Shown piece after piece: positions 3,354 through 61,042 of a stretch of DNA of 64,000 nt. Position 1 is the first letter of the stretch, and the number at the start of each line of letters is the position of its first letter. Source of the DNA: an uncultured Bacteroidales bacterium (GTDB lineage Bacteria > Bacteroidota > Bacteroidia > Bacteroidales > VadinHA17); assembly GCA_963782945.1 (NCBI GenBank), contig CAWALO010000033.1, forward strand, positions 194,014-258,013. The letters are read 5' to 3'. The position numbers were made by a program, and so were the translations under genes. Under the pieces are notes generated by a model. It was not told where the DNA came from and made no database searches. It saw only the letters and a program-made list of their open reading frames with translations.

Positions 3354-3423
3354 CATGCGCCCTGAGCCCATTGCCCTGAGCTCTGAGCTCTGCGCCCTTT
3401 GCCCTGCGTCCTTTGCCCTGCGC
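3354..3423. repeat. degenerate heptanucleotide array, 10 units
   Basis: catgcgc cctgagc ccattgc cctgagc tctgagc tctgcgc cctttgc cctgcgt cctttgc cctgcgc; exact 7-nt phase; ends 1 nt before the yicC-like stop (3425..3427). Confidence 0.9.
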
Positions 3424-3424
3424 C

Positions 3425-4300
3425 TTAAAGTATATTCATCGTCTGCTCCTTGATCTTCTCAAGGTCATCCTTCATCATTACAACAAGTTTCTGAATTGAG
3501 GCATCATTGGCTTTTGACCCTATTGTATTGATCTCCCGTCCGATCTCCTGTGTTATGAAGTTTAAAATCTTACCATTTGGCGACGGAGTGTTGATAGTCT
3601 CAAGAAAATAGTCACAATGGGTTTTCAGTCTCACTTTTTCCTCATTTATGTCAAATTTCTCCAGATAGAATATAAGTTCCTGTTCGAATCTGTTCTTATC
3701 GATATTCTCCCTTCCCACATTTTCCTCGAGAAGTGATAAAAGCTTTTCCCTTACCTTTATAATTCTACCCTGTTCAAAAGTTCCGACAGTCTGAAGCATT
3801 GACAAAATATTCCCAATACATTTTTTCAGATCTGCTGCTATTGAATTCCCTTCCTCGATTCTGTACTGATCAAGCATATTGATTGATTCAGTGATCTTGC
3901 TTTTTGCCAGTTGCCATTCTTCCTCCGGGATTTCAAGTTTATCCGTTTTGAGAGTGTCAGGGAGTTTCATTATGGCTGTAAATATCTGATCATCAAGATT
4001 TATCTTCAATTCTGATGCGATATCTTCAAATTGCCTGTAGTAGCTTTTCACGGCTGATTTGTTTATTGCAGTAGTAACTTCTTCATCATGCATATCAAAG
4101 TAGATGGTGAGGTCAATTTTCCCCCTGTCAAGTTTCTGACTGATAAGATTTCGTATCTCCGGCTCCTTTTCCTTATATAGCCATGGTAGCTTGATATTCA
4201 GATCGAGCTGTTTGGAGTTGAGTGATTTTATTTCTATTGCTATTTTTTTATTTGATGTCTCAGCTATTGCCTTACCATATCCGGTCATGGATTTAATCAT
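3425..4300 (-). CDS. YicC family stress-induced protein
   Basis: MIKSMTGYGKA N-terminus and C-terminal EIGREINTIGSKAND motif typical of YicC family. Confidence 0.8.
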   Translation of the reverse strand: MIKSMTGYGKAIAETSNKKIAIEIKSLNSKQLDLNIKLPWLYKEKEPEIRNLISQKLDRGKIDLTIYFDMHDEEVTTAINKSAVKSYYRQFEDIASELKINLDDQIFTAIMKLPDTLKTDKLEIPEEEWQLAKSKITESINMLDQYRIEEGNSIAADLKKCIGNILSMLQTVGTFEQGRIIKVREKLLSLLEENVGRENIDKNRFEQELIFYLEKFDINEEKVRLKTHCDYFLETINTPSPNGKILNFITQEIGREINTIGSKANDASIQKLVVMMKDDLEKIKEQTMNIL

Positions 4301-4344
4301 CTGCCTATTGTTAGTTTCGGGTTTAAGAAATTGTGGGCTGAAAG

Positions 4345-5691
4345 TTACAAATTCTCATCATATTTAACAACACTCTTCTTCTTCCAACGTCCTGATTTGT
4401 AATATATGAAAGATAATATAAGCCCTATGAACCATCCGGCCGGAATAGACCACCAGATTCCTGCAGCGCCTATCTTTCCTGACAAGATCCAGGCAAAGGG
4501 AATTCTAATCAGCCAGAGGGAGAGAAGAGAGATAAACATCGGGATAAGGGCATCGCCTGCTCCCCTCATTAAGCCGGTATAGATAAACATAAATGTAAAC
4601 ATTATATAGAATGAGCTTACAATAGTGAGATACTGATCACCAAGTCTGATAACCTCAGGGTCGCTGGTGAAAAGGCTCATAAGAATATGCCCTGTAAAAA
4701 CTATAAAAAGTGATGTTACTATCGTTACTATTCCGGACATTTTTATTGTAGCAATAAGTCCTGATTTGATTCTTTCCGGTTTATTGGCCCCGATATTCTG
4801 TCCGACAAATGTTGAGAGGGCCTGAGAGAATGACATGGCAGGGATTATAGCTAGTGCATCGAGTCGGCTTGCCACTGAAAAGCCTGCTATTACATCGGTT
4901 CCGAATTTATTGACAATACCAAGTAATGCAAGTGCTCCAAGAGCAATAAGAGTCTGTTGTATGCCTGTCGGAAGGCCTATCCCTATGCTCTGCCTGAATG
5001 TTTCCCGGTCAAAATGAAGTCCTCCTAATGCTATACGGATCAGTTTATGTGTTTTGTTCAGCCAGATAATTGCAAGTGCGAAAGCTACTCCGTTTGCAAT
5101 AAGTGTAGCATATGCCGCTCCTGCAACGCCCCATTTAAAAATTGCTACAAATAGAATGACCAGGATAATATTTACAAGAGTGGCAATGATAAGAAAATAC
5201 AATGGTGTTTTTGAGTCGCCCAAACCACGGAGTACTGCACTCGTTCCGTTGAAACCAAAGAAGATAACATTTCCTGAGAGATAGATACGCAGATATGTCA
5301 GTGCCTGCGGCATGATCTCTTCGGGCAGTCCGAGCAATCTCAGAAGTGGTTCGCTGATTATAAGACCGATTACTGTTGTAAGGATTCCGGCAATTGCAGT
5401 GTAAATGTACATTGTATCGATGGCCCTCTTGACTTTTACGAAGTCTTTTGCCCCAAAGTACTGTGAAATAACAACAGTGGTACCCATTACAAGGCCGATT
5501 ATAAGCGATACCATTATAAAGATCACAGGGAATGATGCTCCTACTGCGGCCAGCGCTTCTTTTCCAATAAATTTCCCTACAACGATGCTGTCAACAACGC
5601 TGAATAGCTGCTGAAATAAGTTTCCGAGAAGCATAGGTGCGGCAAACTGAAAAATAAGCTTACCTTCCTTACCAATTGTCAGATCATGCAT
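4345..5691 (-). CDS. MATE family efflux transporter
   Basis: 448 aa, about 12 hydrophobic segments, N-terminal PMLLGNLFQQLFSVVDSIVVGKFIG motif of MATE/NorM proteins. Confidence 0.85.
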   Translation of the reverse strand: MHDLTIGKEGKLIFQFAAPMLLGNLFQQLFSVVDSIVVGKFIGKEALAAVGASFPVIFIMVSLIIGLVMGTTVVISQYFGAKDFVKVKRAIDTMYIYTAIAGILTTVIGLIISEPLLRLLGLPEEIMPQALTYLRIYLSGNVIFFGFNGTSAVLRGLGDSKTPLYFLIIATLVNIILVILFVAIFKWGVAGAAYATLIANGVAFALAIIWLNKTHKLIRIALGGLHFDRETFRQSIGIGLPTGIQQTLIALGALALLGIVNKFGTDVIAGFSVASRLDALAIIPAMSFSQALSTFVGQNIGANKPERIKSGLIATIKMSGIVTIVTSLFIVFTGHILMSLFTSDPEVIRLGDQYLTIVSSFYIMFTFMFIYTGLMRGAGDALIPMFISLLSLWLIRIPFAWILSGKIGAAGIWWSIPAGWFIGLILSFIYYKSGRWKKKSVVKYDENL

Positions 5692-5863: not shown

Positions 5864-5910
5864 CATAAATAAAGCTCTTTTATAATATATTCAACCAGAT
5901 ATTGTTATCT

Positions 5911-14652: not shown

Positions 14653-14748
14653 ACACGGAGTGTCACTGAGTTTGACACGGAGTGACACTGTTTGGAATCT
14701 TTCATAAACTCCGTGAAACACCGTTTAAAACTCTGTGTAACTCAGTGG
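14653..14748. repeat. CACNRAGK 10-11-nt repeat block arranged as an imperfect inverted repeat
   Basis: acacggagtgt cactgagtttg acacggagtg on the left; actccgtgaaacaccg ... actctgtgtaactcagtg on the right; cactgagtt(14664-72)/aactcagtg(14740-48) and acacggagt/actctgtgt can pair. Confidence 0.8.
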
Positions 14749-22239: not shown

Positions 22240-22267
22240 GTAGGGTCATGCCATGGCATGACCCTAC
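22240..22267. terminator. 28-bp perfect palindrome gtagggtcatgccatggcatgaccctac (bidirectional hairpin / REP-like)
   Basis: Self-complementary over all 28 nt; lies between convergent genes ending at 22224 (+) and 22334 (-). Confidence 0.55.
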
Positions 22268-22287
22268 AATGTCATCATAATATACGT

Positions 22288-22315
22288 GTAGGGACACGCC
22301 ATGGCGTGTCCCTAC
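22288..22315. terminator. 28-bp perfect palindrome gtagggacacgccatggcgtgtccctac (variant copy)
   Basis: Same outer arms (gtaggg/ccctac) and CCATGG centre as the 22240 copy; inner 5 nt changed symmetrically on both arms. Confidence 0.55.
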
Positions 22316-22333
22316 ATAGAAAACAAATATTCC

Positions 22334-24508: not shown

Positions 24509-24666
24509 TTGAAGTAAAAAATTTTGGCGCAATATAGGAAAAATAGTATAAGGTGGAAATTGTCAAATGTTAAAGAACCTTAAGATCATGAAATACATTT
24601 AAACAGATAAAATATATTCCTAATTCGTTACATTTGAGCTGTTGTTTTAATTCTATGTTGAAAAAT

Positions 24667-24757
24667 CCTTTGTGAACCTTTGTGAAATCCTTTGCGACCT
24701 TCGTGTTAAAAAAAATAAACACGAAGGACACGAAGGGTCTCACAAAGGACACAAAGG
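24667..24757. repeat. CACNRAGK-type repeat hairpin (arms about 40 nt, A-rich loop)
   Basis: cctttgtgaa cctttgtgaaat cctttgcga ccttcgtgtt - aaaaaaaataa - acacgaagg acacgaaggg tctcacaaagg acacaaagg; the arms are near-complementary unit by unit. Confidence 0.85.
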
Positions 24758-24774: not shown

Positions 24775-25947
24775 ATGGCAAAAAAAGAAAAACCTGATTC
24801 TATTGTTGGCGGAATTCATTATGCCACCGGTCAGCCAGTCAAAATAGAAATTAAGGATGGACGAATCGTCTCTGTTATTGAAACAGCCAGGACCGGATTA
24901 GATTTCACGGATCTGATCATTGCTCCCGGATTGACAGATAATCAGATAAACGGGTATGCAAGTATCGATTTCTCAGGAAATGATCTTTCTGCGGATGGTG
25001 TGATAGAGGCAGGAAAGGCTATAAACAGAGATGGCGTTACAACTTTTCTGCCGACATTGATTACCGGCAGCCATGAAAACCTTATTAAAAATTTCGGAAT
25101 TCTTCATGAAGCATTAAACAAAGATGAGAGGCTGTCAGGATCTGTTCCCGGATTTCATCTCGAAGGGCCTTATATCTCACCCGATGAAGGATACCGGGGC
25201 TGTCATCCTGTGCAGCATATAAGGAAGCCTTCCTGGGATGAATTCACCCTGTATCAGAAAGCTGCAGGAGGGAAGATTATCCAGGTCACTGTCGCTCCCG
25301 AGCTGGAGGGATGTACTGAGTTTATAAGGTTATGTAAACTTAACGGTATTACTGTTGCCATGGGTCATACAAATTCATCTGCAGAGGATATCCGCAAGGC
25401 TGTGGAAGCAGGAGTAAGTATATCGACCCATCTCGGAAACGGCTGTGCCAATCTCATTCACCGTCATAATAATCCTATCTGGCCTCAGCTGGCAAATGAA
25501 AATCTTACTTCAACAATAATAGCTGACGGGTTTCATCTGATTCCCGAAGAACTTAAAGTGTTCTATAAAGTAAAAGGTCCGGATAAGCTAATTCTCACCT
25601 CGGATGTAATTTACCTGGCCGGAATGGCTCCGGGGAAATATACTTTTCTGGAAAGTGAGGTTATACTTACAGAGGAAGGCATGCTGAAAAATATAGCCAT
25701 GAACTGCCTTGCAGGAGCCTCTTTTCCCTTAAAAACCGGTGTGGGTAACATGATGAAATATACCGGCTGTTCCATGAAAGATGCAATTAATATGGCATCG
25801 GGTAATGTTGCGAGGGTTTATGGACTGACTGACAGGGGAAGTCTGTCAGCTGGAAAAAGAGCTGATCTGATCATGTTTGAAATGGATGGAGATCATCTTA
25901 AGATCAGAAAAACCTATCTCAATGGGGAACTTGTATTTCAGGGATAA
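24775..25947 (+). CDS. nagA: N-acetylglucosamine-6-phosphate deacetylase-like amidohydrolase
   Basis: APGLTDNQINGY (E. coli-type QxN instead of HxH), HLEGPYIS, AMGHTNSS, STHLGNG motifs; start moved to ATG 24775 because 24682..24774 is repeat DNA. Confidence 0.7.
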   Translation: MAKKEKPDSIVGGIHYATGQPVKIEIKDGRIVSVIETARTGLDFTDLIIAPGLTDNQINGYASIDFSGNDLSADGVIEAGKAINRDGVTTFLPTLITGSHENLIKNFGILHEALNKDERLSGSVPGFHLEGPYISPDEGYRGCHPVQHIRKPSWDEFTLYQKAAGGKIIQVTVAPELEGCTEFIRLCKLNGITVAMGHTNSSAEDIRKAVEAGVSISTHLGNGCANLIHRHNNPIWPQLANENLTSTIIADGFHLIPEELKVFYKVKGPDKLILTSDVIYLAGMAPGKYTFLESEVILTEEGMLKNIAMNCLAGASFPLKTGVGNMMKYTGCSMKDAINMASGNVARVYGLTDRGSLSAGKRADLIMFEMDGDHLKIRKTYLNGELVFQG

Positions 25948-26037
25948 GCATTAATTGGATAAATTACTATATTTATCCGTTGACAATTAATGTTTTTTTA
26001 AGTTAAGTACTATATTCTTCCAATAATAACCAAATGT

Positions 26038-26079
26038 CTCACGCCTCACCCCTGATGCCTGACGCCTCAAACCTCCATC
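26038..26079. repeat. degenerate heptanucleotide array, 6 units
   Basis: ctcacgc ctcaccc ctgatgc ctgacgc ctcaaac ctccatc; ends 4 nt before the SSF start codon; reverse complement of the ggcgtca family at 37624. Confidence 0.8.
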
Positions 26080-26083
26080 CCAC

Positions 26084-27751
26084 ATGAGCCCCATAGATTA
26101 TATAGTACTGTTCGGTTATTTCATCTCAATCACAGCTTTTGGCTTATGGATGGCTCATAGGACAAAGACCAGTGATGCATTTTTCAGGGGCGAGCGGAAG
26201 TTCAAATGGTATATTATGATCGGCCAGGCATTTGGTGTCGGCACCCACGCTGAGATGCCTGTGGCTCAGACAGGAGCAACCTTCAGCCAGGGTTTTGCTA
26301 CAATCTGGTACCAGTGGAAAAATATGCTGATCACTCCTTTCTACTGGCTTATTGCACCTTTTTACAGGCGTAGTGAAAGGACAACTATCGGTGAGATAAT
26401 TGAAGACAGGTATGGCAGCAAAATGGGACTTACATATTCAATATTTGCCGTTTGCTACTTCGTATTCAATATGGGTGTGATGATGCAGGGTGCAGCGAAA
26501 GTGATATCAGTGGCTTCAGGGAATTTAATATCTCCGGATATGGTTGTTCTTACCATGACAGTGGCATTTATCATTTATAGTTATGCAGGTGGACTTATAG
26601 CTGCCGCATACACAGATTTCATCCAGTCATTTCTTATTATTACTCTCTCTATTTTATTAATACCACTTGGATTAAAGCAGATTGGCGGGTTTTCCGGAAT
26701 GAGGGCTGTTCTTCCTGACCATTTCTTTGACCTCTTTAACTCTGCCAGTGGCATTGATGCATTCACAATAGCCATGCTGGCTGTCAACGGAATTGTAGGA
26801 ATAACCGCTCAGCCTCATATGATCTCAATGTGCGCAACAGGTGATACTGAGAGAGCCGGACGTATAGGTCAGACATTCGGATCGATGGTTAAACGGCTGG
26901 TTACTATTGGATGGGCCCTAACAGGATTAGTTGTGGCAGCGCTTGTGATTAAGAAAGGAGTATCACTTCCGGATCCGGAGATGGCTTTCGGATATGCCTG
27001 CAGCGTCCTTCTTGTTCCGGGACTGGTTGGGTTAATGCTGTCAGCAATTGTTGCAGCAAATATGGCAGCTTGTTCAAATTTCATGGTCAATACCGGTGCC
27101 CTTTTTACCCAGAATTTTTATAAGAAATATATCAATCCGGCGGCTGAGGATAGGCGGTTGATGAAGATGGGTCAGGTATCAGGACTCGGTTTGTCAGTGC
27201 TGGCAGTTTTTTTTGCTATGAGCATCAAGAATGTATTGCATGCCTTTCTCTTTACTGAAACGCTGGCGGCATTTATGGGTATAATCTTTCTGGGAGGTAT
27301 TATCTGGAAAAGAGCAAACAGATATGGTGCAGCATCAGCATTGGCCATATCATTATTAACCTATTTTCTGACAAATTTTATTTCCACCGGTGAGTTAATG
27401 CTTGTCTATAAATGGACACCTGCTCCTTTCGGTCTGGCTATGCTTTCAGGTTTCTTTGTGTTCTGGCTTGTAAGCGTACTGACTAAACCTGAAGACAAAG
27501 AGAAAAATGATGCTTTCTTTGATAATATGAGAAGAAAATCGGATGCTAAACATACCGATGGTGACGGGAAAAAGCCACTTGCTTCAGAAACAGGAGACGA
27601 CCTTCTTCTTCTGGACCTTCCCGGATGGCTCCATAAAAAAAGATGGACCAATTTCTTCAGCCGTTATCGTGAAGATATTGGAGGATTCCTTTTAAGCTGG
27701 GTTGTGGTAGGTGCATTGATACTGCTAGCCTGGGGAATACTTCAGATCTAG
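26084..27751 (+). CDS. sodium:solute symporter (SSF) family transporter
   Basis: 555 aa, 13-14 hydrophobic segments, GGLIAAAYTDFIQ motif typical of SSF. Confidence 0.8.
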   Translation: MSPIDYIVLFGYFISITAFGLWMAHRTKTSDAFFRGERKFKWYIMIGQAFGVGTHAEMPVAQTGATFSQGFATIWYQWKNMLITPFYWLIAPFYRRSERTTIGEIIEDRYGSKMGLTYSIFAVCYFVFNMGVMMQGAAKVISVASGNLISPDMVVLTMTVAFIIYSYAGGLIAAAYTDFIQSFLIITLSILLIPLGLKQIGGFSGMRAVLPDHFFDLFNSASGIDAFTIAMLAVNGIVGITAQPHMISMCATGDTERAGRIGQTFGSMVKRLVTIGWALTGLVVAALVIKKGVSLPDPEMAFGYACSVLLVPGLVGLMLSAIVAANMAACSNFMVNTGALFTQNFYKKYINPAAEDRRLMKMGQVSGLGLSVLAVFFAMSIKNVLHAFLFTETLAAFMGIIFLGGIIWKRANRYGAASALAISLLTYFLTNFISTGELMLVYKWTPAPFGLAMLSGFFVFWLVSVLTKPEDKEKNDAFFDNMRRKSDAKHTDGDGKKPLASETGDDLLLLDLPGWLHKKRWTNFFSRYREDIGGFLLSWVVVGALILLAWGILQI

Positions 27752-29392: not shown

Positions 29393-30988
29393 TCAGTCTG
29401 AAACAATATATTTTGGTTTTCTTCTGTTCTTTGTTCCCTGCTCATAGCTATATGCTATCTGAATAAGGAGCGGTTCACTCCATGCCCTGCCAAAGAAGGT
29501 TACCCCAACCGGAAGGTTATCTATGAAGCCCAATGGAACCGAAATTGCCGGGTATCCGGATATTGCTGCCAGTGATGAGCTGCCTCCTACAAAATGATCC
29601 CCTAGTATTAAATCTGTTTTCCATGCCGGAGAACCTGTCGGAGCCATTATAGCATCAAGTTTATTTGTACCCATTACCTTGTCAATTCCATCTTCTCTTG
29701 TTGCTTTTAGCATAAGGGCAAGGGCTTTTTTATATTCAGGCGATTCCAGATCACCTTTTTTATCTGCCATTTCAAGGATTTTCTGATCAAAATAGAGAAG
29801 TTCAATGCTGTCAGATTTATTGAATTCAATAAGCTCGCCTATATTTCTAACATGTGAATCACTCTTCAGTCCTGCAAGATATTTGTTAAGACCATCTTTG
29901 AATTCATAAACCATAACATCATATGAAGCAGACTCATAATCTTCACCTTTAGGGAAGTCAATATCTATCACCTCTGCTCCATTTGCTTTTAGCCATTTAA
30001 CTGCCTTCTCCATCAGAGTATCAACTTTATCAGAGAAGCCCATCGCCTTTCTCTGGAGACCTATGCGTTTACCTTTTACTCCATCTGCAATAAGATATTC
30101 TGAATAGTCGGTAAGGTATTTGCCCGCGGAAGCCACTGTTTTACTGTCAGTTGAATCGATACCGGTCATGGTTCCCAGGGCAATAGCAATATCCTGAACT
30201 GTTCTTCCCATCGGGCCTGGAGTATCCTGTGAGAAAGAAATAGGTATGATCCCCGAGCGGCTTATGAGTCCTACTGTTGGCTTTATTCCTGCAATGCCAT
30301 TGTTGTTTGAAGGGCAAACTATTGAGCCATTGGTTTCGGTGCCAATGGCTAGCATACATAGATTGGCTGAGACAGCTACTCCTGATCCGGAGCTTGAGCC
30401 GCAGGGATTACGGTCGAGTACATACGGATTTTTTGTCTGTCCTCCGGCTCCGCTCCATCCGCTGGATGACATCGAAGAACGGAAATTCGCCCATTCACTC
30501 AGATTCGATTTTGCAATTATTACGGCTCCAGCCTCTCTGAGCTTTTTTGCAACAAAGCTGTCATCTTTTGGATAAGAATTTCTCAGAGCTCTTGATCCGG
30601 CACTATTCGGCATCTTGTCATTAGTGCTGATGTTGTCCTTCAGGATCACGGGAACCCCATGAAGAGGCCCCCTTGACTTGCCGGCAGAAAGTTCCTTGTC
30701 CAGTTCACCGGCAATAGTTAGTGCATCTGGATTTACCTGTATTACAGAATTAAGCTTGGGCCCGTTTTTATCCAGATCATTAATGCGGTTAAGATAGATT
30801 GTCACGATTTGGGTAACAGTATATTTTCCATCCTTATATCCCTGCCGGAGCTGCGGAATAGTAAGTTCTTCAATCCAGCTGTTGTCAGCTGTTACCACAA
30901 TATCCCTGCCGGAAGGAGATGTGCATGTTATCAGAAATATCACTGCCGATGCGCACAGTAGGGAAAATCTGTAAAAGCGGGTTTTCAT
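29393..30988 (-). CDS. amidase-signature family amidase, lipoprotein
   Basis: GGSSSGSG-like signature (CGSSSGSGVAVSA), start at ATG 30988 gives MKTRFYRFSLLCASAVIFLITC lipobox; the longer ORF runs into the octamer array. Confidence 0.85.
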   Translation of the reverse strand: MKTRFYRFSLLCASAVIFLITCTSPSGRDIVVTADNSWIEELTIPQLRQGYKDGKYTVTQIVTIYLNRINDLDKNGPKLNSVIQVNPDALTIAGELDKELSAGKSRGPLHGVPVILKDNISTNDKMPNSAGSRALRNSYPKDDSFVAKKLREAGAVIIAKSNLSEWANFRSSMSSSGWSGAGGQTKNPYVLDRNPCGSSSGSGVAVSANLCMLAIGTETNGSIVCPSNNNGIAGIKPTVGLISRSGIIPISFSQDTPGPMGRTVQDIAIALGTMTGIDSTDSKTVASAGKYLTDYSEYLIADGVKGKRIGLQRKAMGFSDKVDTLMEKAVKWLKANGAEVIDIDFPKGEDYESASYDVMVYEFKDGLNKYLAGLKSDSHVRNIGELIEFNKSDSIELLYFDQKILEMADKKGDLESPEYKKALALMLKATREDGIDKVMGTNKLDAIMAPTGSPAWKTDLILGDHFVGGSSSLAAISGYPAISVPLGFIDNLPVGVTFFGRAWSEPLLIQIAYSYEQGTKNRRKPKYIVSD

Positions 30989-31016
30989 TGTCATAACTCT
31001 GTAACTTATTAAGCTC

Positions 31017-31080
31017 TTCAACATTTCAACATTTCAACTCTTCAACATTTCAACACTTCAACATATCAACATTTCACCTC
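31017..31080. repeat. degenerate octanucleotide array, 8 units
   Basis: ttcaacat ttcaacat ttcaactc ttcaacat ttcaacac ttcaacat atcaacat ttcacctc; ends 5 nt before the kef-type stop codon (31086..31088). Confidence 0.9.
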
Positions 31081-31085: not shown

Positions 31086-33068
31086 TCAGTTGGTTTTACG
31101 GACTAGTAATTCGGAAGCAAAATTTATCTGTTCAGGATTTCCCAGTAAATATGCAATATCGTCACCCTTGAACACAGTTTCCGGTACAGGATGTTCAATA
31201 ATATCCGAACCTCTTCTGATTGCCAGGAGGGTTACTCCGGTCATTTTTCTCAGGTCAATATCAATTATCGATTTTCCATCTGCACGAGCGCCACGTTCAA
31301 CCTTTACTGCCTGTATGCTGATATTCGGAAATTCATCGAGAACAGAAGGCTGATTAACAATGTCTTTTTCACTGAATACACCCAGATTCGTATTCCTGAT
31401 ATGTGTAAGTATACGGTTAACCTCTTTTTGAGGGATCAGCCTTTTTATGAGGATACTGTTTAAGAGATCAATGGCTAACTCCAGTTTTTCAGGAATCACC
31501 TGGTCTGCGCCGGCTTTATATAGCATCTCCACATTCCTTATAAGAGTACCTCTTGCCAGAATATAGGCGTTTTTATTTATCCTCCTTACTTTATCGATAA
31601 TAGCTATTGAGGGTATGACACTGCCCACTGAAATAACGACAATATCAGCTGTATCCACATGGGCTTTTCTCAGAATTGGTTCATTGACAGCATCACCATA
31701 AACAACCATATCTCCGCAATTTATTTTTTCGCGGGCTCTTGAAGGGTCAAATATTATGGAGATATGCCTGAGATTATTCTGTTTTGCCATCGCCGATAGT
31801 TTTATAGCAGCTGCATCCTTACCTATGATTACAAGATGGTTCTTGAAATCGGGTATTTCAATCTCCTTCAATGGAAACAATCCGTTAATCATAACCCCGG
31901 GAAGTGGTAGCTTAAGCAGTAATTTTAACATCGGTGATGACAGGTAAAATATGAATGGGGTAAAAGCCATTGTAATGACTGCAACTGCAAGGAAGAGATG
32001 ATAATAGAAAGCTGACAATATAGAGTTATCAAATCCGATTTTAGCCAGGACAAATGAAAATTCACCTACCTGGCTGAGCGCAAGGCCGATCAATATAGTA
32101 CCCTGCAATGTATGCCCCAGAATAAATCCTGTACCTCCTGCAATTATTGTTTTTACCACGAGTATCAGCACAACACTTATAATAACCAGTATATAGTTCT
32201 CGATAACGAATGAGATATCAAGCAGCATACCGATGGAGACAAAGAAAAAGCTGGCGAATATATCCTTTACTGGCTGAAAATTTCCGAAAGCATTGTAGCT
32301 GTATTCCGATTCAGAGATCATCAACCCTGCTAAAAATGCACCGAAAGCAAGTGACATCCCTAATTTTGAGGTAAACAGGGCGATTGCAAAACAGATCAGG
32401 AATATACTCATCATGAAGAGCTCCTGACTCTTTGTAAGTGCAATAAGGTGCAATAGTTTAGGCAACAGCCATTTGTTACCGGCATAGACAAGTCCGATTA
32501 TGAAAATTACCTTGAGTGTAAGCGCAATTAATTCCTTTTGTATGTCCAATGTATTCTCAGCCAGAAGATTGACTAACAGGAGGAGAGGAGCGAGCAGAAG
32601 GTCCTGGAAAATAAGAATACCCAAAACAGTGCGCCCGTAGTTTGAAGTAAGTTCGGACCGTTCCTGGAGAATTTTCAAAACCAGTGCTGAGCTGCTCAGA
32701 GCAGCCAGGAAACCTATAAATAGTCCTCCCTGCCAGTTCATTCCAAAAAAATGTGATGCTACGAAAAACACTCCTGCAGTTACGGTTACCTGTATAAAGC
32801 CTCCAAGGAAGACAATTCTTCTGATCTTCAGGAGATGTTGCAAAGAGAACTCCATTCCAATGGTGAAGAGCAGCAATACAACCCCTATTTCAGCTAAAAG
32901 CTCTATCTGATGTCCTTCGGAAACCAGTGAAAGCAGATGTGGTCCGGCGATGACACCTGTAAGCAAATATCCAACAACTGTGGGGATCCTGAACCTTGTG
33001 AAAATAAGATTCACCAGGGTGGAGAGAGCAAAGATTATTACAATATCCTTTAATATTGATAACTCCAT
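31086..33068 (-). CDS. Kef-type cation:proton antiporter with RCK (TrkA-N/TrkA-C) domains
   Basis: About 12 TM segments followed by a Rossmann-like HLVIIGKDAAA segment and a C-terminal RCK_C-like region; ATG at 33068. Confidence 0.85.
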   Translation of the reverse strand: MELSILKDIVIIFALSTLVNLIFTRFRIPTVVGYLLTGVIAGPHLLSLVSEGHQIELLAEIGVVLLLFTIGMEFSLQHLLKIRRIVFLGGFIQVTVTAGVFFVASHFFGMNWQGGLFIGFLAALSSSALVLKILQERSELTSNYGRTVLGILIFQDLLLAPLLLLVNLLAENTLDIQKELIALTLKVIFIIGLVYAGNKWLLPKLLHLIALTKSQELFMMSIFLICFAIALFTSKLGMSLAFGAFLAGLMISESEYSYNAFGNFQPVKDIFASFFFVSIGMLLDISFVIENYILVIISVVLILVVKTIIAGGTGFILGHTLQGTILIGLALSQVGEFSFVLAKIGFDNSILSAFYYHLFLAVAVITMAFTPFIFYLSSPMLKLLLKLPLPGVMINGLFPLKEIEIPDFKNHLVIIGKDAAAIKLSAMAKQNNLRHISIIFDPSRAREKINCGDMVVYGDAVNEPILRKAHVDTADIVVISVGSVIPSIAIIDKVRRINKNAYILARGTLIRNVEMLYKAGADQVIPEKLELAIDLLNSILIKRLIPQKEVNRILTHIRNTNLGVFSEKDIVNQPSVLDEFPNISIQAVKVERGARADGKSIIDIDLRKMTGVTLLAIRRGSDIIEHPVPETVFKGDDIAYLLGNPEQINFASELLVRKTN

Positions 33069-33194
33069 CTTAACTTTAATGGATTTCTGCAAGTAACATC
33101 CTAAAGATAATTTTTATAGTCCGGATTCAAGTATGCCTTAAGAGGATTTTTATATGATTTATTTTTAGCTCCCTGAAAAATTTTAATCTGCAGA

Positions 33195-34352: not shown

Positions 34353-34380
34353 GACGACTCACGATGTACGGCACACGGCA
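34353..34380. repeat. short heptanucleotide array, 4 units
   Basis: gacgact cacgatg tacggca cacggca, starting at the nt after the xdhC-like stop codon. Confidence 0.5.
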
Positions 34381-35470: not shown

Positions 35471-37624
35471 ATGAAAAAAGATGAAACTGTGAATATAGCC
35501 TCAGCAACTGGCAAAAAGCGTCGCGGAATGCCGAGGCGTGATTTTTTCAAACTAATAGGAAGTGGAATTATTGTCTGTTTCATGCCAAGGTGTGCCAGCG
35601 ACGGAACTCCGCTGGCAGCTCCGCTGGAAAGAGATCTCACAAAGGATTACAATGCTTTCCTGCTTATAGGTGAGGATGGAACTGTAAACTGCTTTACCGG
35701 AAAAATTGAGATGGGTCAGGGAATTATCACATCACTGGTTCAGATGATGGCTGATGAACTGAATGTTCCGATTGAAAAAATTAAGCTTGTGATGGGAGAT
35801 ACCGACCTTTGTCCCTGGGATGGCGGTACCTGGGGTTCAACTACTACCAGGGAATTCGGACCATCCATGAGGGCTGCTTTAGCAGAAGGGAAAGGGGTGC
35901 TTCTTGAACTGGCATCGGAAAAGCTTAAGGTGCCGGTAAGTCAGCTTACCGTGAATGATGGTGTAATAACAGATACTGCTAATCCTGCCAATTCGGTCAC
36001 TTATGCCGAGCTTGCTAAAGGGAAGAAAATTGAGCGATTCCTCAAAGAAAAACCTTCTCCTGAAGACTATACGAAATATACGTTTGTTGGTAAATCCTAC
36101 CAGCGAATGGATGCAAAAGTGAAAGTTACCGGGGAAGCGAAATTTACAGGCGACTTGAAAGTGCCAGGGATGGTTTTTGCCCGTATCCTCAGACCTCCGT
36201 CGCATGGCGCAAAACTTACAACTGTTGATACATCCGGAGCTGAAAAGGTTGAAGGCGCAAAAGTGGTCAGGGATGGAGACCTTATAGCTGTACTGCACGA
36301 AAACCGTGACAAAGCTGATGAAGCGCTCATTAAGATAAAAGCGGATTATACTTATAATGAATTGCCTGTCAATGATAAGACTGTCTTCGAGTATATGCTG
36401 AAATCGGATTCATATGCAAATGTTGAGACGTCAAGTGGTGATCTTGAGGCAGGAAAAAAACTTTGCGATAAGACATTCGAAACAGTTGTTCATGATCCAT
36501 ATCTGGCTCATTCACCTATGGAAACTCATGCAGCTCTTGCACAATTTGAAGGAGGTAAAATGACTGTCTGGGCATCAACTCAAACGCCTTATCCTCTTCA
36601 GGACGAACTGGCAGGAGTATTGGCACTTCCTCTTGAGAAAGTCAGGGTAATTGTGCCCTTTGTCGGCGGAGGTTTTGGTGGCAAGAGCACAAACTATCAG
36701 GCTGTCGAAGCTGCAAAGCTGGCAAAGCTGAGTGGGAAACCTGTGATGGTTATGTGTACACGTGATGAAGAGTTTTTCAAGGATAATTTTCATCCGGCCG
36801 GGGTAATTACAATTAAATCTGGTATTGACAAGGAGGGACTGATAAAATACTGGGAATACGATACATATTACTGCGGCACAAGGGGCACTGAGATTCTTTA
36901 TGATGTCCCCAATCTTAAGTTTACAGATCACGACCGTAAGGAAAACGGGCCGCTTATACATCCCTTTGATACAGGGCCGTGGCGTGCTCCCAACAACAAC
37001 ACAAATACTTTCGCCAGAGAGATGCAGGTAGATCTCATGGCAGCAGCAGCAGGGATTGATCCTCTGGAATTTCGTCTTAAGAATCTTAAGGATGAGAAGA
37101 TGATAGAGGTACTGAAAAAAGTTGCTGATATGTTCGGATATAAGCCGGGTAAAGGTAAAGGTGGAAGAGGGGTTGGTATGGCAATAGGTACTGATGTTGA
37201 TTCGTTGGTGGCTCAGATGGCTGAAGTTGAGGTTGATAAAAAGAGTGGTAAGGTTAAGGTTTTGCGTATGGCCTGTGCACAGGATATGGGGCAATGCGTT
37301 AATCCTCAGGGAGCAACACTTCAGATGGAGGGATGTATGACTATGGGACTCGGATACACCCTTACGGAAGAGATTATCTATGAGGGAGGGAATATAATAA
37401 CAAGAGGATTTGATTCCTATGATATTCCAAAGTTCTCATGGCTGCCAAAAATAGATACCTTTATAATTCAAAGGCTAAATGAACCTCCGCATGGTGGGGG
37501 AGAACCAGCAATTATTACTGTCGGGGCAGTTGTTGGAAACGCCATTTTTAATGCAACGGGAGCACGGCTCACCAGAATGCCATTTACACCGGAAAGAGTC
37601 CTTGAGGCATTGAAAAAAGTATAG
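35471..37624 (+). CDS. molybdopterin-binding large subunit (IorB/aldehyde oxidoreductase-like), Tat signal
   Basis: PRRDFFKLIGSGIIVCF twin-arginine leader; GQG, FGGK and other XDH-family large-subunit motifs; 717 aa. Confidence 0.85.
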   Translation: MKKDETVNIASATGKKRRGMPRRDFFKLIGSGIIVCFMPRCASDGTPLAAPLERDLTKDYNAFLLIGEDGTVNCFTGKIEMGQGIITSLVQMMADELNVPIEKIKLVMGDTDLCPWDGGTWGSTTTREFGPSMRAALAEGKGVLLELASEKLKVPVSQLTVNDGVITDTANPANSVTYAELAKGKKIERFLKEKPSPEDYTKYTFVGKSYQRMDAKVKVTGEAKFTGDLKVPGMVFARILRPPSHGAKLTTVDTSGAEKVEGAKVVRDGDLIAVLHENRDKADEALIKIKADYTYNELPVNDKTVFEYMLKSDSYANVETSSGDLEAGKKLCDKTFETVVHDPYLAHSPMETHAALAQFEGGKMTVWASTQTPYPLQDELAGVLALPLEKVRVIVPFVGGGFGGKSTNYQAVEAAKLAKLSGKPVMVMCTRDEEFFKDNFHPAGVITIKSGIDKEGLIKYWEYDTYYCGTRGTEILYDVPNLKFTDHDRKENGPLIHPFDTGPWRAPNNNTNTFAREMQVDLMAAAAGIDPLEFRLKNLKDEKMIEVLKKVADMFGYKPGKGKGGRGVGMAIGTDVDSLVAQMAEVEVDKKSGKVKVLRMACAQDMGQCVNPQGATLQMEGCMTMGLGYTLTEEIIYEGGNIITRGFDSYDIPKFSWLPKIDTFIIQRLNEPPHGGGEPAIITVGAVVGNAIFNATGARLTRMPFTPERVLEALKKV

Positions 37625-37728
37625 GCGTCAGGCATCAGGCATCAGGCGTCAGGCGTCAGGCCACAGGGGAGATTGATTTATAAAAATTCCCCTGATACCT
37701 GTCGCCCGCCCCCTGACGCCATTTTTTT
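37624..37728. repeat. heptanucleotide array (6 units ggcgtca ggcatca ggcatca ggcgtca ggcgtca ggccaca) folding back on an inverted partial copy, followed by T7
   Basis: Right arm tcccctgatacctgtcgcccgccccctgacgcc (37688..37720) pairs with cagggga and ggcgtcagg of the left arm; ttttttt at 37722..37728; fills the whole gap between convergent genes. Confidence 0.8.
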
Positions 37729-38596
37729 AATAGAGATATTTTTTAAGGAGTTCAATTCCTTTCTTTATCTCTTCGCGGCCTGAAGATTCAATGCCATACC
37801 ATCCGCGGTATCCTGAGTCTCTGGCCAGTTTTATCATTTTTGCGGTAATCTCCTCTGTTGGCTGATTCCGGTAAGACATTCCTCCGGCATAAGGAAGCAT
37901 TTTCTGCAGATAGTCATAATTATCGAAATTATCAGACGGCCGGCGCCAGTCGGGATAACTTCCGAAATAGAGGTTGTCAACCTCCTTCAGAAGCGATACC
38001 ATCCAGTCAGCATCATTGGAGACTCCGCCGTGATTTTCGATCAGTACACTGATCTTTGCAGGAACCGCATATTCCATCATCATCTGATATGTCTCCGTTG
38101 CCCATTTAAGCGCTTCACCCTTTGAAACATTCTCCGGTCCCCGGCAGTTGGTCCTGATTGCATGACATCCAAGGTAATGTGCAGCATCGATCCACTTGCG
38201 GTGATTAATCTCAAACTGACGCCGTTCTTCCCTGGTTGAAGAACATCCATCGCCCTCATCGTCTACCATTATCAGAACCATTGTAACACCATTGTCTGCA
38301 GCGTTTTTCTTTAACTGTTTAAGATACCCTTCTGTGGTTACTTCAAAAAGAGTATTTACAAATTCAATACCATTCAGTCCAAAATCATTCCTTGCTATTT
38401 TAGCAAAATCAAGGGTTTTCCATTTGCCCGACTTCACTTCATCAACAAGAGCCCATTGGGCGAGTGAGATATCATCTTTGATCATACGGGCCGTGGGCCC
38501 TGTGAGGGATGACCCGATTACTGAGGGAGCAACAATGCCTGCTGCTCCCACTACAACCGATTTTTCGAGAAAATTTCTTCTTGTAATATTCTTCAT
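37727..38596 (-). CDS. xylose isomerase-like TIM-barrel protein (sugar phosphate isomerase/epimerase family), Tat signal
   Basis: MKNITRRNFLEKSVVVGAAGIVAP leader; family resemblance of the mature part (IENHGG motif). Confidence 0.75.
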   Translation of the reverse strand: MKNITRRNFLEKSVVVGAAGIVAPSVIGSSLTGPTARMIKDDISLAQWALVDEVKSGKWKTLDFAKIARNDFGLNGIEFVNTLFEVTTEGYLKQLKKNAADNGVTMVLIMVDDEGDGCSSTREERRQFEINHRKWIDAAHYLGCHAIRTNCRGPENVSKGEALKWATETYQMMMEYAVPAKISVLIENHGGVSNDADWMVSLLKEVDNLYFGSYPDWRRPSDNFDNYDYLQKMLPYAGGMSYRNQPTEEITAKMIKLARDSGYRGWYGIESSGREEIKKGIELLKKYLY

Positions 38597-44143: not shown

Positions 44144-44165
44144 GGGTCATGCCATGGCATGACCC
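44144..44165. terminator. 22-bp perfect palindrome gggtcatgccatggcatgaccc (third copy of the 22240 element)
   Basis: Identical to the core of the 22240..22267 palindrome; between convergent genes ending at 44138 (+) and 44172 (-). Confidence 0.55.
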
Positions 44166-44171
44166 TACATA

Positions 44172-45736: not shown

Positions 45737-45832
45737 AATGTTACAGTTTTATAATTTCCAGGTATAATTATCAGGATGCAATTTAGCGAAAATGCAGTAC
45801 TTTTTTACTATTGGAATAATTTTAGATAAAAA

Positions 45833-45898
45833 GCCGGAAGCCCGAAGCCGGAAGCCGGAAGCCTGCTGCCTGCTGCCTGCTGCCTGAAGCCTGAAGCC
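45833..45898. repeat. degenerate heptanucleotide array, 9.4 units
   Basis: gccggaa gcccgaa gccggaa gccggaa gcctgct gcctgct gcctgct gcctgaa gcctgaa gcc; last nt is part of the stop codon of the 45898..46872 gene. Confidence 0.9.
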
Positions 45899-46872
45899 TA
45901 CTTCACCTCCGTCCTGACACCTGTTGTAATTGCCACATTCTTCCTCCATTCATATTTAGAATCTTTCGCGAACCTGAGAAGAACGTCGTAAGTGCCAGGA
46001 GAACAGCAATTTGCCACGGTAATATTTTCGTAACTTATTGTTTCAAGATTTTTAATAGGTTCAGGTTTGCCTGTCTGTTTCAAGGCCGTTCCTGCAGGGT
46101 ATAGATGCATTGCTTTAACATCCGGGCTGGAACCGGTGTAGACAATTCCGCCGGCATTCAGATTGACAGCTACCTTATAGCTCATGTCTGGTTTCAGCTG
46201 GAAGTTTTCAAGCCATACTTTGTGGGTTTGGGATGATATTGCAATAGATATCAGTACGTCATAGGTACCTGGTTTAATTTTGCCTTTTGTTTTGCCATCA
46301 CTTTTGTCGGGTGTGACAGGTTTGTCACGCTTTCCCTGTTCATAGAAGGTTGGGATACCGAAGTAGACATCCTGTATTGTATGGGATTTGCATCTGTTTA
46401 CTTCAGATTCATACTGGCTAAGTCCATTAAGTGATGCCTGTTTTTCTTCAAGGTTGATCTGGTAATCATAAAGAGTAACAGACACAGTTGTTTTAGTTTT
46501 AGGCTTTATTAAGATATTGCCGGCAATAAAGCTCAGTAATCCGGGGCTTCCTGACAGCTTGAAATTAAGCATTAGATCGTAGGTGCCCGGAGCAGCTCCC
46601 TGCATCTTAACCTCTTTACCCGAACTCAGCAGTTTAAATTCCGAACTTGCAATAAGATCACCAAGAGCCCTGATGTTAACCGTTAAAGGAGATGTTTTAT
46701 CACCTTCATTCATTGCAGCATAGCTTTGCTGAATCCAGACCTGGTTCCAGCAACGTTCAGTTTTTACGTTAATGCCATTTTTAAGCTTGTAGACATAGTT
46801 TGATACAGGCTGAGCCTGAATGGCGAATAACAGCACGAGATGAAGAACCAAGATTGAAATTATGTTTTTCAT
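45898..46872 (-). CDS. secreted hypothetical protein with three PGTYD-containing repeats
   Basis: Signal peptide; PGTYDLML (aa 95), PGTYDVLI (aa 201), PGTYDVLL (aa 292). Confidence 0.55.
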   Translation of the reverse strand: MKNIISILVLHLVLLFAIQAQPVSNYVYKLKNGINVKTERCWNQVWIQQSYAAMNEGDKTSPLTVNIRALGDLIASSEFKLLSSGKEVKMQGAAPGTYDLMLNFKLSGSPGLLSFIAGNILIKPKTKTTVSVTLYDYQINLEEKQASLNGLSQYESEVNRCKSHTIQDVYFGIPTFYEQGKRDKPVTPDKSDGKTKGKIKPGTYDVLISIAISSQTHKVWLENFQLKPDMSYKVAVNLNAGGIVYTGSSPDVKAMHLYPAGTALKQTGKPEPIKNLETISYENITVANCCSPGTYDVLLRFAKDSKYEWRKNVAITTGVRTEVK

Positions 46873-46916: not shown

Positions 46917-47010
46917 AACCAATAAACAACTCGAGTCAATTTTATTTGTTACCGTTATTCTGTGCATGGGATATTTCCTGAGGAAGTTGAGCGGAGTTTG
47001 ATTTTTTTAC

Positions 47011-47050
47011 CACGGTGTTGCACTGAGGATTAACGGAGTTTCACGGAGTC
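47011..47050. repeat. CACNRAGK-type decamer array, 4 units
   Basis: cacggtgttg cactgaggat taacggagtt tcacggagtc; the reverse complement shares actccgtgaaacNccgtt with 14708..14726. Confidence 0.75.
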
Positions 47051-47070
47051 TTTTTAAAGCTGTATTCTTC

Positions 47071-47119
47071 CTCTACACTCTATACTCTACGCTGTATGCT
47101 CTATGCTTCCTATCTATAT
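47071..47119. repeat. degenerate heptanucleotide array, 7 units
   Basis: ctctaca ctctata ctctacg ctgtatg ctctatg cttccta tctatat; ends 1 nt before the DUF2177-like stop codon (47121..47123). Confidence 0.8.
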
Positions 47120-47120: not shown

Positions 47121-47516
47121 CTACCCGATTTTTGAAGAGATAAAATAGGTTACCACGGAGACAGAAGCCGCCAGCACCATACCCCAGATCAGATCCACTA
47201 TTGTGACCAATACAGGCCAGTTTTTTAAAGTTGCGAGATTAGTCAGATCGTAAGTGGCATATGTGACGAGTCCGAAAAAAGCACCATAAAGCAGGGCGTG
47301 TACCCAGGAATGCTTTTCAATAGCCGGACTGATTACAAATACGACCAGTGCCGCTATAAAGAGAAGATAGAAAATAATGGCAGCCGGCCAGACGATATCG
47401 GGTCTCATCAGAAATCCTATCTGTTCGCTGTAAAATTTCTTTGCTACCAGAACAAGCCAAATCATATCGATTATAAAAAAAGCCGGCAATGCAATCAGAA
47501 AAAGTCTAATAAACAT
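47121..47516 (-). CDS. DUF2177-like small membrane protein
   Basis: 131 aa, 4 hydrophobic segments. Confidence 0.55.
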   Translation of the reverse strand: MFIRLFLIALPAFFIIDMIWLVLVAKKFYSEQIGFLMRPDIVWPAAIIFYLLFIAALVVFVISPAIEKHSWVHALLYGAFFGLVTYATYDLTNLATLKNWPVLVTIVDLIWGMVLAASVSVVTYFISSKIG

Positions 47517-51570: not shown

Positions 51571-51800
51571 AAAGTATAAGGTTAATTTTTCACTGTCTGG
51601 TCATGAAAATTGTATTATGTGGTTGCCGGACAGAACATCAAAATTAACATATAAGTTATACTGAAATTGAAAGGACATCGATTTTTTTAAAGCAAATCTA
51701 TCAACTCTATTTTGTTGCTATTTTCTGATATGCTTTTTTTTCGCCATTTTGATACTTTTTGATATTTTATGATCATTTGTATTTTACAGCTTTATATTTA

Positions 51801-51843
51801 AACACGAAGGTGCACAAAGGTTTTCACAAAGGACTCAAAGGGC
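51801..51843. repeat. CACNRAGK-type array, 4 units
   Basis: aacacgaagg tgcacaaagg ttttcacaaagg actcaaaggg; same unit family as 24719..24757. Confidence 0.75.
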
Positions 51844-51871: not shown

Positions 51872-51934
51872 CTCTATGCTCTTCGCTCTCCGCTCTCCGC
51901 TCCCCGCTTTATGCTTTATGCTCTACGCTATTCG
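51872..51934. repeat. degenerate heptanucleotide array, 9 units
   Basis: ctctatg ctcttcg ctctccg ctctccg ctccccg ctttatg ctttatg ctctacg ctattcg; same unit family as 47071..47119. Confidence 0.9.
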
Positions 51935-56475: not shown

Positions 56476-56589
56476 AGTTTTTGCATTTCAAATGAGGTTG
56501 AACAATCGTAAGTGGACGAAAATTACTTAAAAGTAGTAAAAGTATTTGAGAAACTTTTTTTTAATTGAGCAATTGCAGAAATGAGGGAT

Positions 56590-56624
56590 GGTGCTGGGTT
56601 CTTGGTGCTGGGTTCTGGGTGAGT
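56590..56624. repeat. degenerate heptanucleotide array, 5 units
   Basis: ggtgctg ggttctt ggtgctg ggttctg ggtgagt; same unit family as 60987..61042. Confidence 0.8.
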
Positions 56625-59657: not shown

Positions 59658-59697
59658 ACATTCGTAAGTGCACTATTTATCAAAATGAACCTATATC

Positions 59698-60981
59698 ATG
59701 ACAACCAGCAGACGCAAATTTATTTCTACCTCAATTGCAGGCGGCATAGCAGCTTCGATACCTTTCTCTGCATGTACATACTCAGCACCGGCAGGTAGCT
59801 CTGCCAATTCCGGGACTGACTATTCAGGACTTGATGCGATACTTAAAAAGCGGGTCTTTAAAAGTGAGCTCTTTTCATCGCCGGTAATAATTGAAACGCT
59901 TGAGTTACTCAGGTATAATAACAGTTTCTTATGCCGCGTCAGATCGCGTGACGGTGCGGAAGGATTATCTGTTGGTCATAGCGGACAGCTGAGGTCTCTG
60001 TACCCTGTTTTTACAAATCTTTTGCAACCATTTTTTATTGGCAAGGATGCCCGCGACCTTGATCTGCTTGTGGAGAAAGTATATATCTACAACCTCAATT
60101 TCAGGCTTTCGGGGATGGCCCTGGGTGTTCCTCTTGCGACAATAGAATTTGCCATCCTTGATATGATGGGACGGATATCTCAAAAAACTATAGGACAGAT
60201 GATTGGTGAAATACATCATCCTGAAGTAGCTGTTTACCAGGCTACCGAATACCGTGAGAAACCGGTAGGGGAGTCAATGGAACTTATAAAGCGGGACGTT
60301 ACGGAATACGATGCCAAAGCGCTGAAGATAAAGGTGGGCGGATTAATGTTCATGACAGATGACATGAATGCTGTCGGGCCTGAGGGCAGGACTGAGACAA
60401 TGATACCACTTGTAAGAAAAACATTCGGTGATGACATGGTTTTGTATGCTGATTCAAACGGATTTTATTCGGTGGAAGAGGCAATACGCGTAGGTAAAAT
60501 TCTTGAGGAGTATCATTTTGAGTTTTTTGAGGAGCCTGTTCCTTTTGACTGGTATGAGGAGACAAGGAAGGTTGCCGATAATCTGGCAATAGCGGTTGCC
60601 GGAGGAGAGCAGGAATACAGTCTGCATGGGTTCCGGTGGCTTATTGCCAATGACAGTCTTCAGATAGTTCAGCCAGATACCTTTTATTTCGGAGGGATGA
60701 TACGGTCAATGAGAGTGGCACTTATGGCTGAGGCAGCTGGTAAAAAATGTACTCCGCATATGTCAGGAGGAGATCTGGGATTCCTTTATATGATGCACTT
60801 TGTATCAGCTCTGCCTAATGCACTTAATTATCATGAGTTCAAAGGTTTTACAACTGATACTGTTTTTGAGTGTAAAACATCACCCCTTAAGAGTGTTGAA
60901 GGAAAGGTAAAGGTTCCTACTGGTCCGGGGTTGGGGGTGGAGATTGATCCTGCGTTTGTAGCTAAGCACAGGGTGGTGTAG
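59698..60981 (+). CDS. enolase-superfamily (mandelate racemase/muconate lactonizing enzyme family) protein with Tat-type leader and possible lipobox
   Basis: [26 protein letters not shown] leader; KIKVGG (KxK), YADSNG, FFEEP, GGEQE, TPHM catalytic-type motifs. Confidence 0.75.
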
Positions 60982-60986
60982 GGGAT

Positions 60987-61042
60987 GGTTCCGGATTCTG
61001 GGTTCTGGGTACTTGGTACAGGGTACAGGGTGCGAGGTGCAG
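60987..61042. repeat. degenerate heptanucleotide array, 8 units
   Basis: ggttccg gattctg ggttctg ggtactt ggtacag ggtacag ggtgcga ggtgcag; starts 5 nt after the stop codon at 60979..60981. Confidence 0.9.

Follow-up and report, generated by a model that had tools for sequence, protein, structure and literature searches.

Hypervariable heptanucleotide arrays in the intergenic DNA of uncultured Bacteroidales

Between the genes of a 64,000-nt stretch of an uncultured Bacteroidales contig (the window hereafter) lie short tandem arrays whose units are 7 nt long and change from locus to locus, many of them pressed against the end of a coding sequence. What generates these heptamer arrays, and what holds them in place? 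An earlier note on the window, made from its letters and open reading frames (ORFs), had listed ten such loci and read them as a genome-wide class of elements. Heptamer arrays are a real, lineage-wide feature of these Bacteroidales. They are probably hypermutable heptanucleotide simple sequence repeats (SSRs) driven by slippage, comparable to microsatellites or variable-number tandem repeats (VNTRs), which gene expression filters or promotes.

Period and position of the arrays

We searched for arrays with a lag-7 self-match scan (match +1, mismatch -1), designating as strong any array with a score of at least 12, and also ran Tandem Repeats Finder (TRF) on the window. Related loci, numbered with an L prefix, came in two independent sets: set 1 consists of 80 loci (1.46 Mb) from metagenome-assembled genomes (MAGs) that carry relatives of the window's XDH-like protein, and set 2 of 80 metagenome loci (0.70 Mb) around another window gene; 85-86% of the DNA in both sets is coding. 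The window holds 8 strong arrays, compared to 0.2 from shuffled sequence, while other periods give 0-3, apart from period 14, whose 7 arrays are identical to those of period 7. The same excess appears in the relatives, with 100 period-7 arrays in set 1 (2-30 for periods 4-13 and 15) and 36 in set 2 (1-17 for other periods), so the class, which the earlier note had supposed to be genome-wide, extends across the lineage. The clade has roughly 50-125 arrays per Mb; none occurs in 100 kb of E. coli K-12. TRF reported arrays of period 7, 14 or 21 at 3359-3424, 26041-26067, 37623-37667, 45831-45899, 47071-47107, 51872-51929, 56589-56621 and 60987-61031, with copy-to-copy matches of 68-93% in window arrays of more than three units. 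The loci in the window are as follows.

3337..3424, minus strand: heptamer array of about 10-12 units, sense GGCGCAG/GGCAAAG/AGCTCAG; score 27; sense G-C = +14; occupies the 96 nt between the yicC stop (3425) and the gmk start (3328)
26038..26085, plus strand: heptamer array CTCACGC/CTGATGC/CTGACGC; score 17; reaches the ATG of a sodium:solute symporter gene
34353..34380, plus strand: weak period-7 stretch in the gap from xdhC to the next gene; score below 9, chance level when taken alone
37623..37667, plus strand: heptamer array AGGCGTC/AGGCATC x6; score 30; begins on the TAG stop of the XDH-like molybdenum (Mo)-subunit gene; 5' hairpin arm
37688..37720, plus strand: inverted partial copy, 3' hairpin arm; pairs with 37624-37665
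45831..45899, minus strand: heptamer array of about 10 units, sense AGGCTTC x2, AGGCAGC x3, CGGCTTC x4; score 48; begins on the TAG stop of gene 45898..46872
47071..47119, minus strand: heptamer array, sense ATAGAGC/GTAGAGT; score 18; just 3' of the stop of gene 47121..47516; periodic core 47071-47107
51872..51934, strand unassigned: heptamer array CTCTATG/CTCTCCG/CTTTATG x9; score 32; in a divergent gap, 45 nt 5' of the start at 51980
56590..56624, strand unassigned: heptamer/14-mer array GGTGCTG GGTTCTT x2.4; score 14; in the middle of a co-directional gap
60987..61042, plus strand: heptamer array GGTTCTG/GGTACAG/GGTGCAG x8; score 27; 5 nt past the stop of an enolase-superfamily dehydratase gene

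Eight of the ten loci named earlier thus stand as strong arrays; the stretch at 34353-34380 does not rise above chance, and 37688-37720 is the inverted arm of a hairpin and holds no tandem array. The window itself is gene-dense, has a G+C content of about 41% and encodes, among others, GldG, PheT, YicC, Gmk, NagA, an XdhC-like factor and an XDH-family molybdenum subunit. The best relatives of the latter (62-85% amino acid identity) occur only in MAGs labelled as uncultured Bacteroidales or Rikenellaceae, and the names of these MAGs point to fen, lake and anaerobic-reactor samples.

Despite the high coding fraction, 138 of 144 arrays (105 of 108 and 33 of 36) fall outside ORFs. Those in the window are non-coding, as the earlier note had argued, because they are located between well-supported genes. 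Their units are contiguous, and the arrays show neither the 23-50-nt repeats nor the unique spacers of similar length that define a CRISPR locus, in agreement with the view taken before.

The claimed abutment of arrays on coding sequences is borne out at four genes, where the first unit follows the stop codon within 0-7 nt: yicC (TAA|GGCGCAG), the XDH-like gene (TAG|GCGTCAG), gene 45898 (TAG|GCTTCAG) and the dehydratase (TAG|GGGATGG). The array at 47071 lies 13 nt from the stop of gene 47121, and 4 nt separate the end of that at 26038 from the ATG at 26084. Of the seven window arrays with free space, four are 0-13 nt from a stop, a placement with a random probability of about 0.07 each (P ~1e-3). 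Array positions in co-directional gaps with at least 60 nt of free room are bimodal: 13 arrays are no further than 10 nt from the upstream stop and 8 no further than 10 nt from the downstream start, compared to 2.2 expected for each. In set 2, 11 of 23 arrays lie 10 nt or less from a stop; their gaps measure 51-574 nt, and several exceed 200 nt. Coding sequence ends, and mainly stops, therefore carry far more arrays than random placement would give. Relatives conserve the C-termini of the proteins down to the final residue whether or not an array follows, and the abutment is therefore no artefact of ORF calling. The median co-directional gap is 135 nt long if it holds an array and 50 nt if it does not. 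Per kb, arrays are densest in convergent gaps (0.82) and sparsest in divergent gaps (0.16), although the convergent excess is inflated by one gap, 3' of the XDH-like gene, that was sampled 80 times.

Unit turnover in orthologous gaps

Comparison of orthologous gaps shows that the same gaps carry arrays again and again while their units turn over. The gap 3' of the XDH-like gene holds an array with its best score at lag 7 in 26 of 80 loci, and the units are unrelated (they include AGGCGTC, TGAGGTA, AGCACAG, GGCAACC, TAAGAAT and GAAAGTC). The gaps 5' of the symporter gene and 3' of gene 45898 and of the dehydratase gene hold recurrent arrays as well: gaps orthologous to the 26038 locus carry other arrays with C>G in L004 and L034, those orthologous to the 45831 locus carry other arrays in L001 and L003, and L083, L088, L090 and L152 have arrays at the position equivalent to 60987. 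Strand orientation is fixed within one orthologous gap (24 of 24 and 9 of 9). The gap orthologous to the weak 34353-34380 stretch contains arrays in roughly 25 of 80 relatives, by a hand count of the listing, and the window stretch is possibly a decayed remnant. Where an orthologue lacks the array, its gap measures only 4-17 nt, and the arrays are therefore dispensable insertions.

Units within an array drift stepwise, as the earlier note had described, with the mean distance between units rising from 1.7 for neighbours to 3.0 for units six apart. The differences between close relatives amount to whole units. L102 and L103, which are 94-98% identical, carry one AGGCATG and one AGGTGTG versus three of each, differ by one extra CTGCCAA unit, and have 12 versus about 7 CTACTTA units; exactly one unit of 7 nt distinguishes the arrays of L057 and L080. 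These differences contradict the earlier judgement that the units are too imperfect for slipped-strand change, and they make the footprint of a slippage process the best supported of the readings that the earlier note had proposed. In a comparison of 2524 pairs of orthologous gaps, those with an array proved less conserved than those without when flank identity was the same (e.g., 0.45-0.53 versus 0.71). A general purifying selection on array sequence was considered and rejected: L057/L080 and some other pairs visible to BLAST had seemed better conserved than their coding flanks, but this is an ascertainment effect, and the comparison of all pairs shows lower conservation. In their behaviour the arrays are microsatellites or VNTRs.

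The earlier note had also stated that unit families recur at distant loci and in either orientation. Two pairs in the window bear this out: the 26038 and 37623 arrays are complementary (81-87% over 30-37 nt), and the 56597 and 60987 arrays, which share a unit family, are similar (83% over 24 nt). As a general rule, recurrence stands only weakly above background. An exact unit is common to 3 of 28 pairs of window arrays, compared to 4.4% of between-genome pairs, and with all genomes pooled, sharing within a genome reaches 8.6% versus the same 4.4% (p = 0.07).

Strand asymmetry and hairpins

No universal core motif emerged from the arrays; their conserved columns match all columns in composition, and no di- or trinucleotide is dominant. 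A sequence-specific landing pad for a binding protein, one of the options first proposed, is therefore unlikely. The same column composition rules out an (NAG N4)n core by analogy to HutP. We likewise discarded the idea that arrays provide backup stops in three frames, since 10 of 42 after-stop arrays close all frames compared to 11.8 after column permutation and 7 on the antisense strand; stop triplets show no enrichment. Rfam 15 gave no match at gathering score; at E<=1 only spurious miRNA-hairpin matches appeared, none of them at the arrays.

What the arrays after stops do share is a strand bias. On the mRNA strand, G exceeds C in arrays that lie within 10 nt after a stop: this holds for 23 of 24 gap clusters, for 12 of 12 arrays in set 2 and for 6 of 6 in the window. 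Some of the 24 clusters are orthologous to each other, and collapsing them by hand leaves about 16 independent gaps with G>C to 1. Array-free gaps show no G/C skew (167:185). The G-rich strand in the window goes with the gene, whichever DNA strand encodes it, and no single replication strand is favoured. Arrays upstream of starts in the relatives have A>T (43:9), with G and C balanced (28:24). A general purine richness of the sense strand does not hold up, as the raw ratio of 38:7 falls to 16:9 (p = 0.23) after orthologous gaps are collapsed.

We also observed that the three window arrays without a preceding stop (26038-26083, 51872-51934 and 56590-56624) are all strongly C-rich and G-poor in the sense of the downstream gene, with G-C = -19, -16 and -13, respectively. 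This is the mirror image of the after-stop arrays and is inconsistent in the relatives, where the balance is the 28:24 given above. A strong hairpin with a T-run behind it, directly after nagA at 25941-26003, is probably the intrinsic terminator of that gene; the C-rich 26038 array lies downstream of it and thus falls between this terminator and the symporter start codon. The 56590 array is preceded by two small G/C hairpins.

Some arrays face an inverted copy of themselves. An inverted partner within 130 nt accompanies 18 of 108 arrays (about 17%), compared to 1 in the control, and L051 has a perfect 23-bp stem. In the window, the RNA of 37612-37738 is predicted to fold with a free energy of -51.1 kcal/mol (z = -6.3, with none of 200 shuffles as stable). 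The element at 37613-37730 lies between convergent genes with GAAAAAAG (an A-run) upstream and AUUUUUUUA (a U-run) downstream, and it looks like a bidirectional intrinsic terminator as far as the prediction goes. Its stable G+C-rich hairpin, U-run and upstream A-run are the features of such a terminator. The majority of arrays lack both an inverted partner and a U-run, and little pairing is predicted for them. A simple terminator scan was uninformative, with 14 candidates compared to 14.2 expected. The terminator-like platform suggested by the earlier note fits the 37.6-kb locus and the arrays with an inverted partner, and does not fit the remainder.

Relation to known repeats and candidate explanations

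The earlier note could not match the arrays to a described repeat family. They fit the generic class of intergenic heptanucleotide long SSRs (LSSRs) and lie outside all sequence-defined families. LSSRs (Mrázek et al. 2007, as presented in PMC4679880 and PMC4692102) are tandem 5-11-nt units with a peak at 7 that are intergenic, occur sporadically among lineages and are attributed to slippage. The Bacteroidales arrays show a head-to-tail unit of that size beyond chance length, an excess of period 7 over neighbouring periods in both sets, a non-coding location, and variation in unit number among close relatives (L102/L103 and L057/L080). Stop abutment, the G>C bias of the mRNA strand and the persistence of arrays in orthologous gaps with unit turnover are not part of the LSSR description as summarised in those two papers. 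According to the same summaries, heptamers are the commonest LSSR in many prokaryotes, and polymerase slippage was conjectured as the cause, with 7 nt as the length of DNA held by the polymerase (Mrázek 2007 via PMC4679880, PMC4692102).

Several heptamer families with a defined unit come close. The GGGAATC repeats of Xanthomonas and GGGGA(T/C)T repeats of Nostoc (Rehm et al. 2015, PMC4692102) occupy the same gene gaps in related species, vary in length and sequence, and include inverted arrangements able to form stem-loops. In those genomes one G-quadruplex-forming unit family dominates, whereas each of ours holds many unrelated units. The TAACTGA repeats (MacGregor 2015, PMC4679880) are intergenic heptamer direct repeats that often abut a coding sequence end, and S1, Csp and CsrA have been proposed to bind them; they occur in Beggiatoaceae, cyanobacteria and five Bacteroidetes, and other heptamer repeats exist in intergenic regions of Bacteroidetes (PMC4679880). 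They consist of a single unit in mostly 2-6 copies and lie mostly just upstream of starts, whereas the present arrays lie mainly after stops. STRR, TAACTGA, GGGAATC and GGGGAYT units do not occur as a tandem dimer in the window or in 160 related loci. The short tandemly repeated repetitive (STRR) sequences of heterocystous cyanobacteria, reportedly described by Mazel et al. in 1990, are said to be heptamers with the fixed units CCCCAGT, TTGGTCA and CAACAGT. These repeats, to which PMC4692102 refers, resemble our arrays in being tandem heptamers dispersed through intergenic DNA across a lineage, and differ in that their unit sequences are fixed.

The arrays do not belong to two further classes. 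Phase-variation SSRs are near-perfect short repeats within coding sequences or between promoter elements, where a change of units turns a gene on or off, whereas these arrays are imperfect and lie after stops or between cistrons; our promoter scan used a sigma-70-type consensus, which is not known to describe Bacteroidetes promoters. The REP/BIME elements of enterobacteria share the 3' untranslated region (UTR) or intercistronic location, and some form hairpins able to act as terminators or stabilisers, but they are conserved imperfect palindromes of about 35 nt (35-40 nt in near-identical copies), all copies of one sequence, whereas the arrays are direct repeats without a conserved sequence. 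The window does contain a REP-like perfect palindrome, GTAGGGTCATGCCATGGCATGACCCTAC, at 22240-22268, 22291-22316 and 44144-44169, always in gaps between convergent genes. Two copies are 100% identical and lie 21.9 kb apart, and the third is 85% identical. It is unrelated to the heptamer arrays.

Two other repeats were noted in passing. At 31017-31076, a tandem array with a period of 8 nt (plus strand TTCAACAT x7.5; sense, on the minus strand, ATGTTGAA) fills the gap between the minus-strand genes 31086..33092 and 29393..31024. Each unit contains an ATG and an out-of-frame TGA, which yields the mini-ORF ATG TTG AAA TGT TGA, and the last unit provides the predicted start codon at 31024. Period 8 is the next commonest class in the relatives (30 arrays compared to 100 for period 7). 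The second is a dispersed repeat of 3-4 copies of CACrrAGk (reverse complement CCTTyGTG) spaced by about 10-11 nt, present in the window at 14653-14747, 24663-24757, 46999-47060 and 51796-51841, and in L002 (1069-1107), L015 (11710-11826), L037 (794-894) and others, with 17 clusters in 2.2 Mb. The copies often form an inverted pair around an A/T run with the potential for a long hairpin, and lie upstream of nagA in the window and in L002; they match no Rfam family, with only spurious miRNA-type matches. Two of the window copies are close to the CTCTAyG heptamer arrays, at a distance of 10-35 nt, which may explain the unit family these two arrays have in common.

How would slippage give rise to the pattern? 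In a slippage-prone lineage comprising a group of uncultured Bacteroidales, strand slippage would create and remodel arrays through gain and loss of whole 7-nt units, point mutation, and renewed amplification of mutated units. Since 7 cannot be divided by 3, only untranslated DNA would allow arrays to survive. An array that has arisen in a gap may persist for long, with its period and strand inherited while the unit sequence drifts, which would explain why relatives have the same gap and period with different units. Gene expression could then set the place and orientation in which arrays persist, G>C at stops and A-rich before starts. The asymmetry may arise from selection against C-rich, unstructured, ribosome-free RNA of the kind that loads Rho, or from a transcription-linked mutation bias in which G-rich naked RNA past the stop forms R-loops that provoke slippage. 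Some arrays would have gained an inverted copy and so supply the stems of terminator-like hairpins, as at 37613-37730.

A number of observations weigh against this account. Pure slippage accounts neither for the dominance of period 7 nor for array starts exactly at stops when 60-500 nt of gap lie free, and the G>C rule extends to operon ends, where filtering through Rho should be irrelevant. Indel lengths in the noisier bulk alignments show no clear multiples of 7; only the clean pairs (L102/L103 and L057/L080) are informative for unit-length indels. Non-orthologous arrays share units in 4.0% of cases versus 2.2% in the null, about 1.8-fold above composition, in a test that hidden orthology confounds, since coordinates in truncated loci do not align; the excess hints at preferred units or copying between loci. 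Positions 1516-1623 of L057 and 8760-8867 of L080 are 98% identical over 108 nt although their coding flanks are only 76-77% identical. This element is an intercistronic hairpin built of heptamers and an outlier to the general hypervariability, and its identity points either to strong constraint or to recent recombination over a short tract.

Such conservation, far above that of the flanks, is what selected RNA elements would show. Arrays could be unstructured 3' UTR or intercistronic tracts coated by a single-stranded RNA binder with a footprint of about 7 nt, one unit per protein (a cold-shock-domain or S1-type OB fold, or an RRM protein, are candidates), which would tune mRNA stability, processing or downstream translation, with selection acting on the period and not on the sequence. 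A period that is kept while sequence varies, precise starts at stop codons and adjacency to start codons, the orientation-specific composition of the mRNA strand, and direct repeats predicted to be largely unpaired all speak for it. So do the binding of Csp, S1 or CsrA proposed for TAACTGA heptamers, given that CspB binds one heptamer per protein (PMC4679880), and the reporter effects described for deletion of heptamer repeats in Nostoc (preprint 10.1101/2022.06.06.494920). We nevertheless regard this explanation as unlikely: many orthologues have a 4-17-nt gap in place of the array, ordinary intergenic DNA is better conserved than the arrays, near-identical genomes differ in copy number, and the arrays have no common motif.

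Rho loads on C-rich, G-poor, unstructured RNA, and this opens a further option in which arrays are transcription-termination devices. Those with an inverted copy would be bidirectional intrinsic terminators; those without would be one-way Rho-loading pads, C-rich and unstructured on the antisense strand, that block read-through or antisense transcription entering the 3' end of a gene and are inert, being G-rich, for the sense transcript. The fold at 37612-37738 with its flanking A- and U-runs, the 23-bp stem of L051, the surplus of inverted partners (18 of 108 versus 1) and the C>G antisense strand of after-stop arrays in 23 of 24 clusters are in line with this, as is the ranking of densities from convergent to divergent gaps, though the repeated sampling of the XDH 3' gap inflates the convergent value. 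Most arrays lack an inverted partner or U-run, however, and many lie within operons (yicC-gmk, xdhC-next gene), where termination would be harmful and an opposing transcript is not expected; the period of 7 would be left without explanation. We consider a general role in termination improbable. Assembly or sequencing artefacts, or chance periodicity, are barely credible. The related sequences are all metagenome assemblies, in which tandem repeats can be mis-assembled, but dozens of independent assemblies, whose contig names point to different assemblers and read types, have like arrays in orthologous places, relatives differ cleanly by whole units, and chance would give 0.2 arrays per window. 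On balance, hypermutable SSRs shaped by slippage and gene expression probably account for the heptamer arrays.

The over-representation of heptamers among long bacterial SSRs has been noted since at least 2007; new is a large environmental clade of Bacteroidales with a high array density and many unrelated units within each genome. The arrays offer strain-level VNTR markers, and are a hazard for assembly and for the prediction of intergenic motifs and noncoding RNAs in Bacteroidales MAGs. Any explanation has to accommodate three regularities: arrays start at stops, their mRNA strand almost always has G>C, and gap and strand are kept while units turn over. It is a long shot that the arrays are selected, orientation-specific untranslated RNA tracts in which the 7-nt register, and not the sequence, is the functional variable. 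Such tracts might serve a protein with a 7-nt footprint or act as one-way Rho-loading pads against antisense transcription, with slippage rapidly tuning their dosage. If true, this would give a function to the long-unexplained "heptamer excess" of bacteria.

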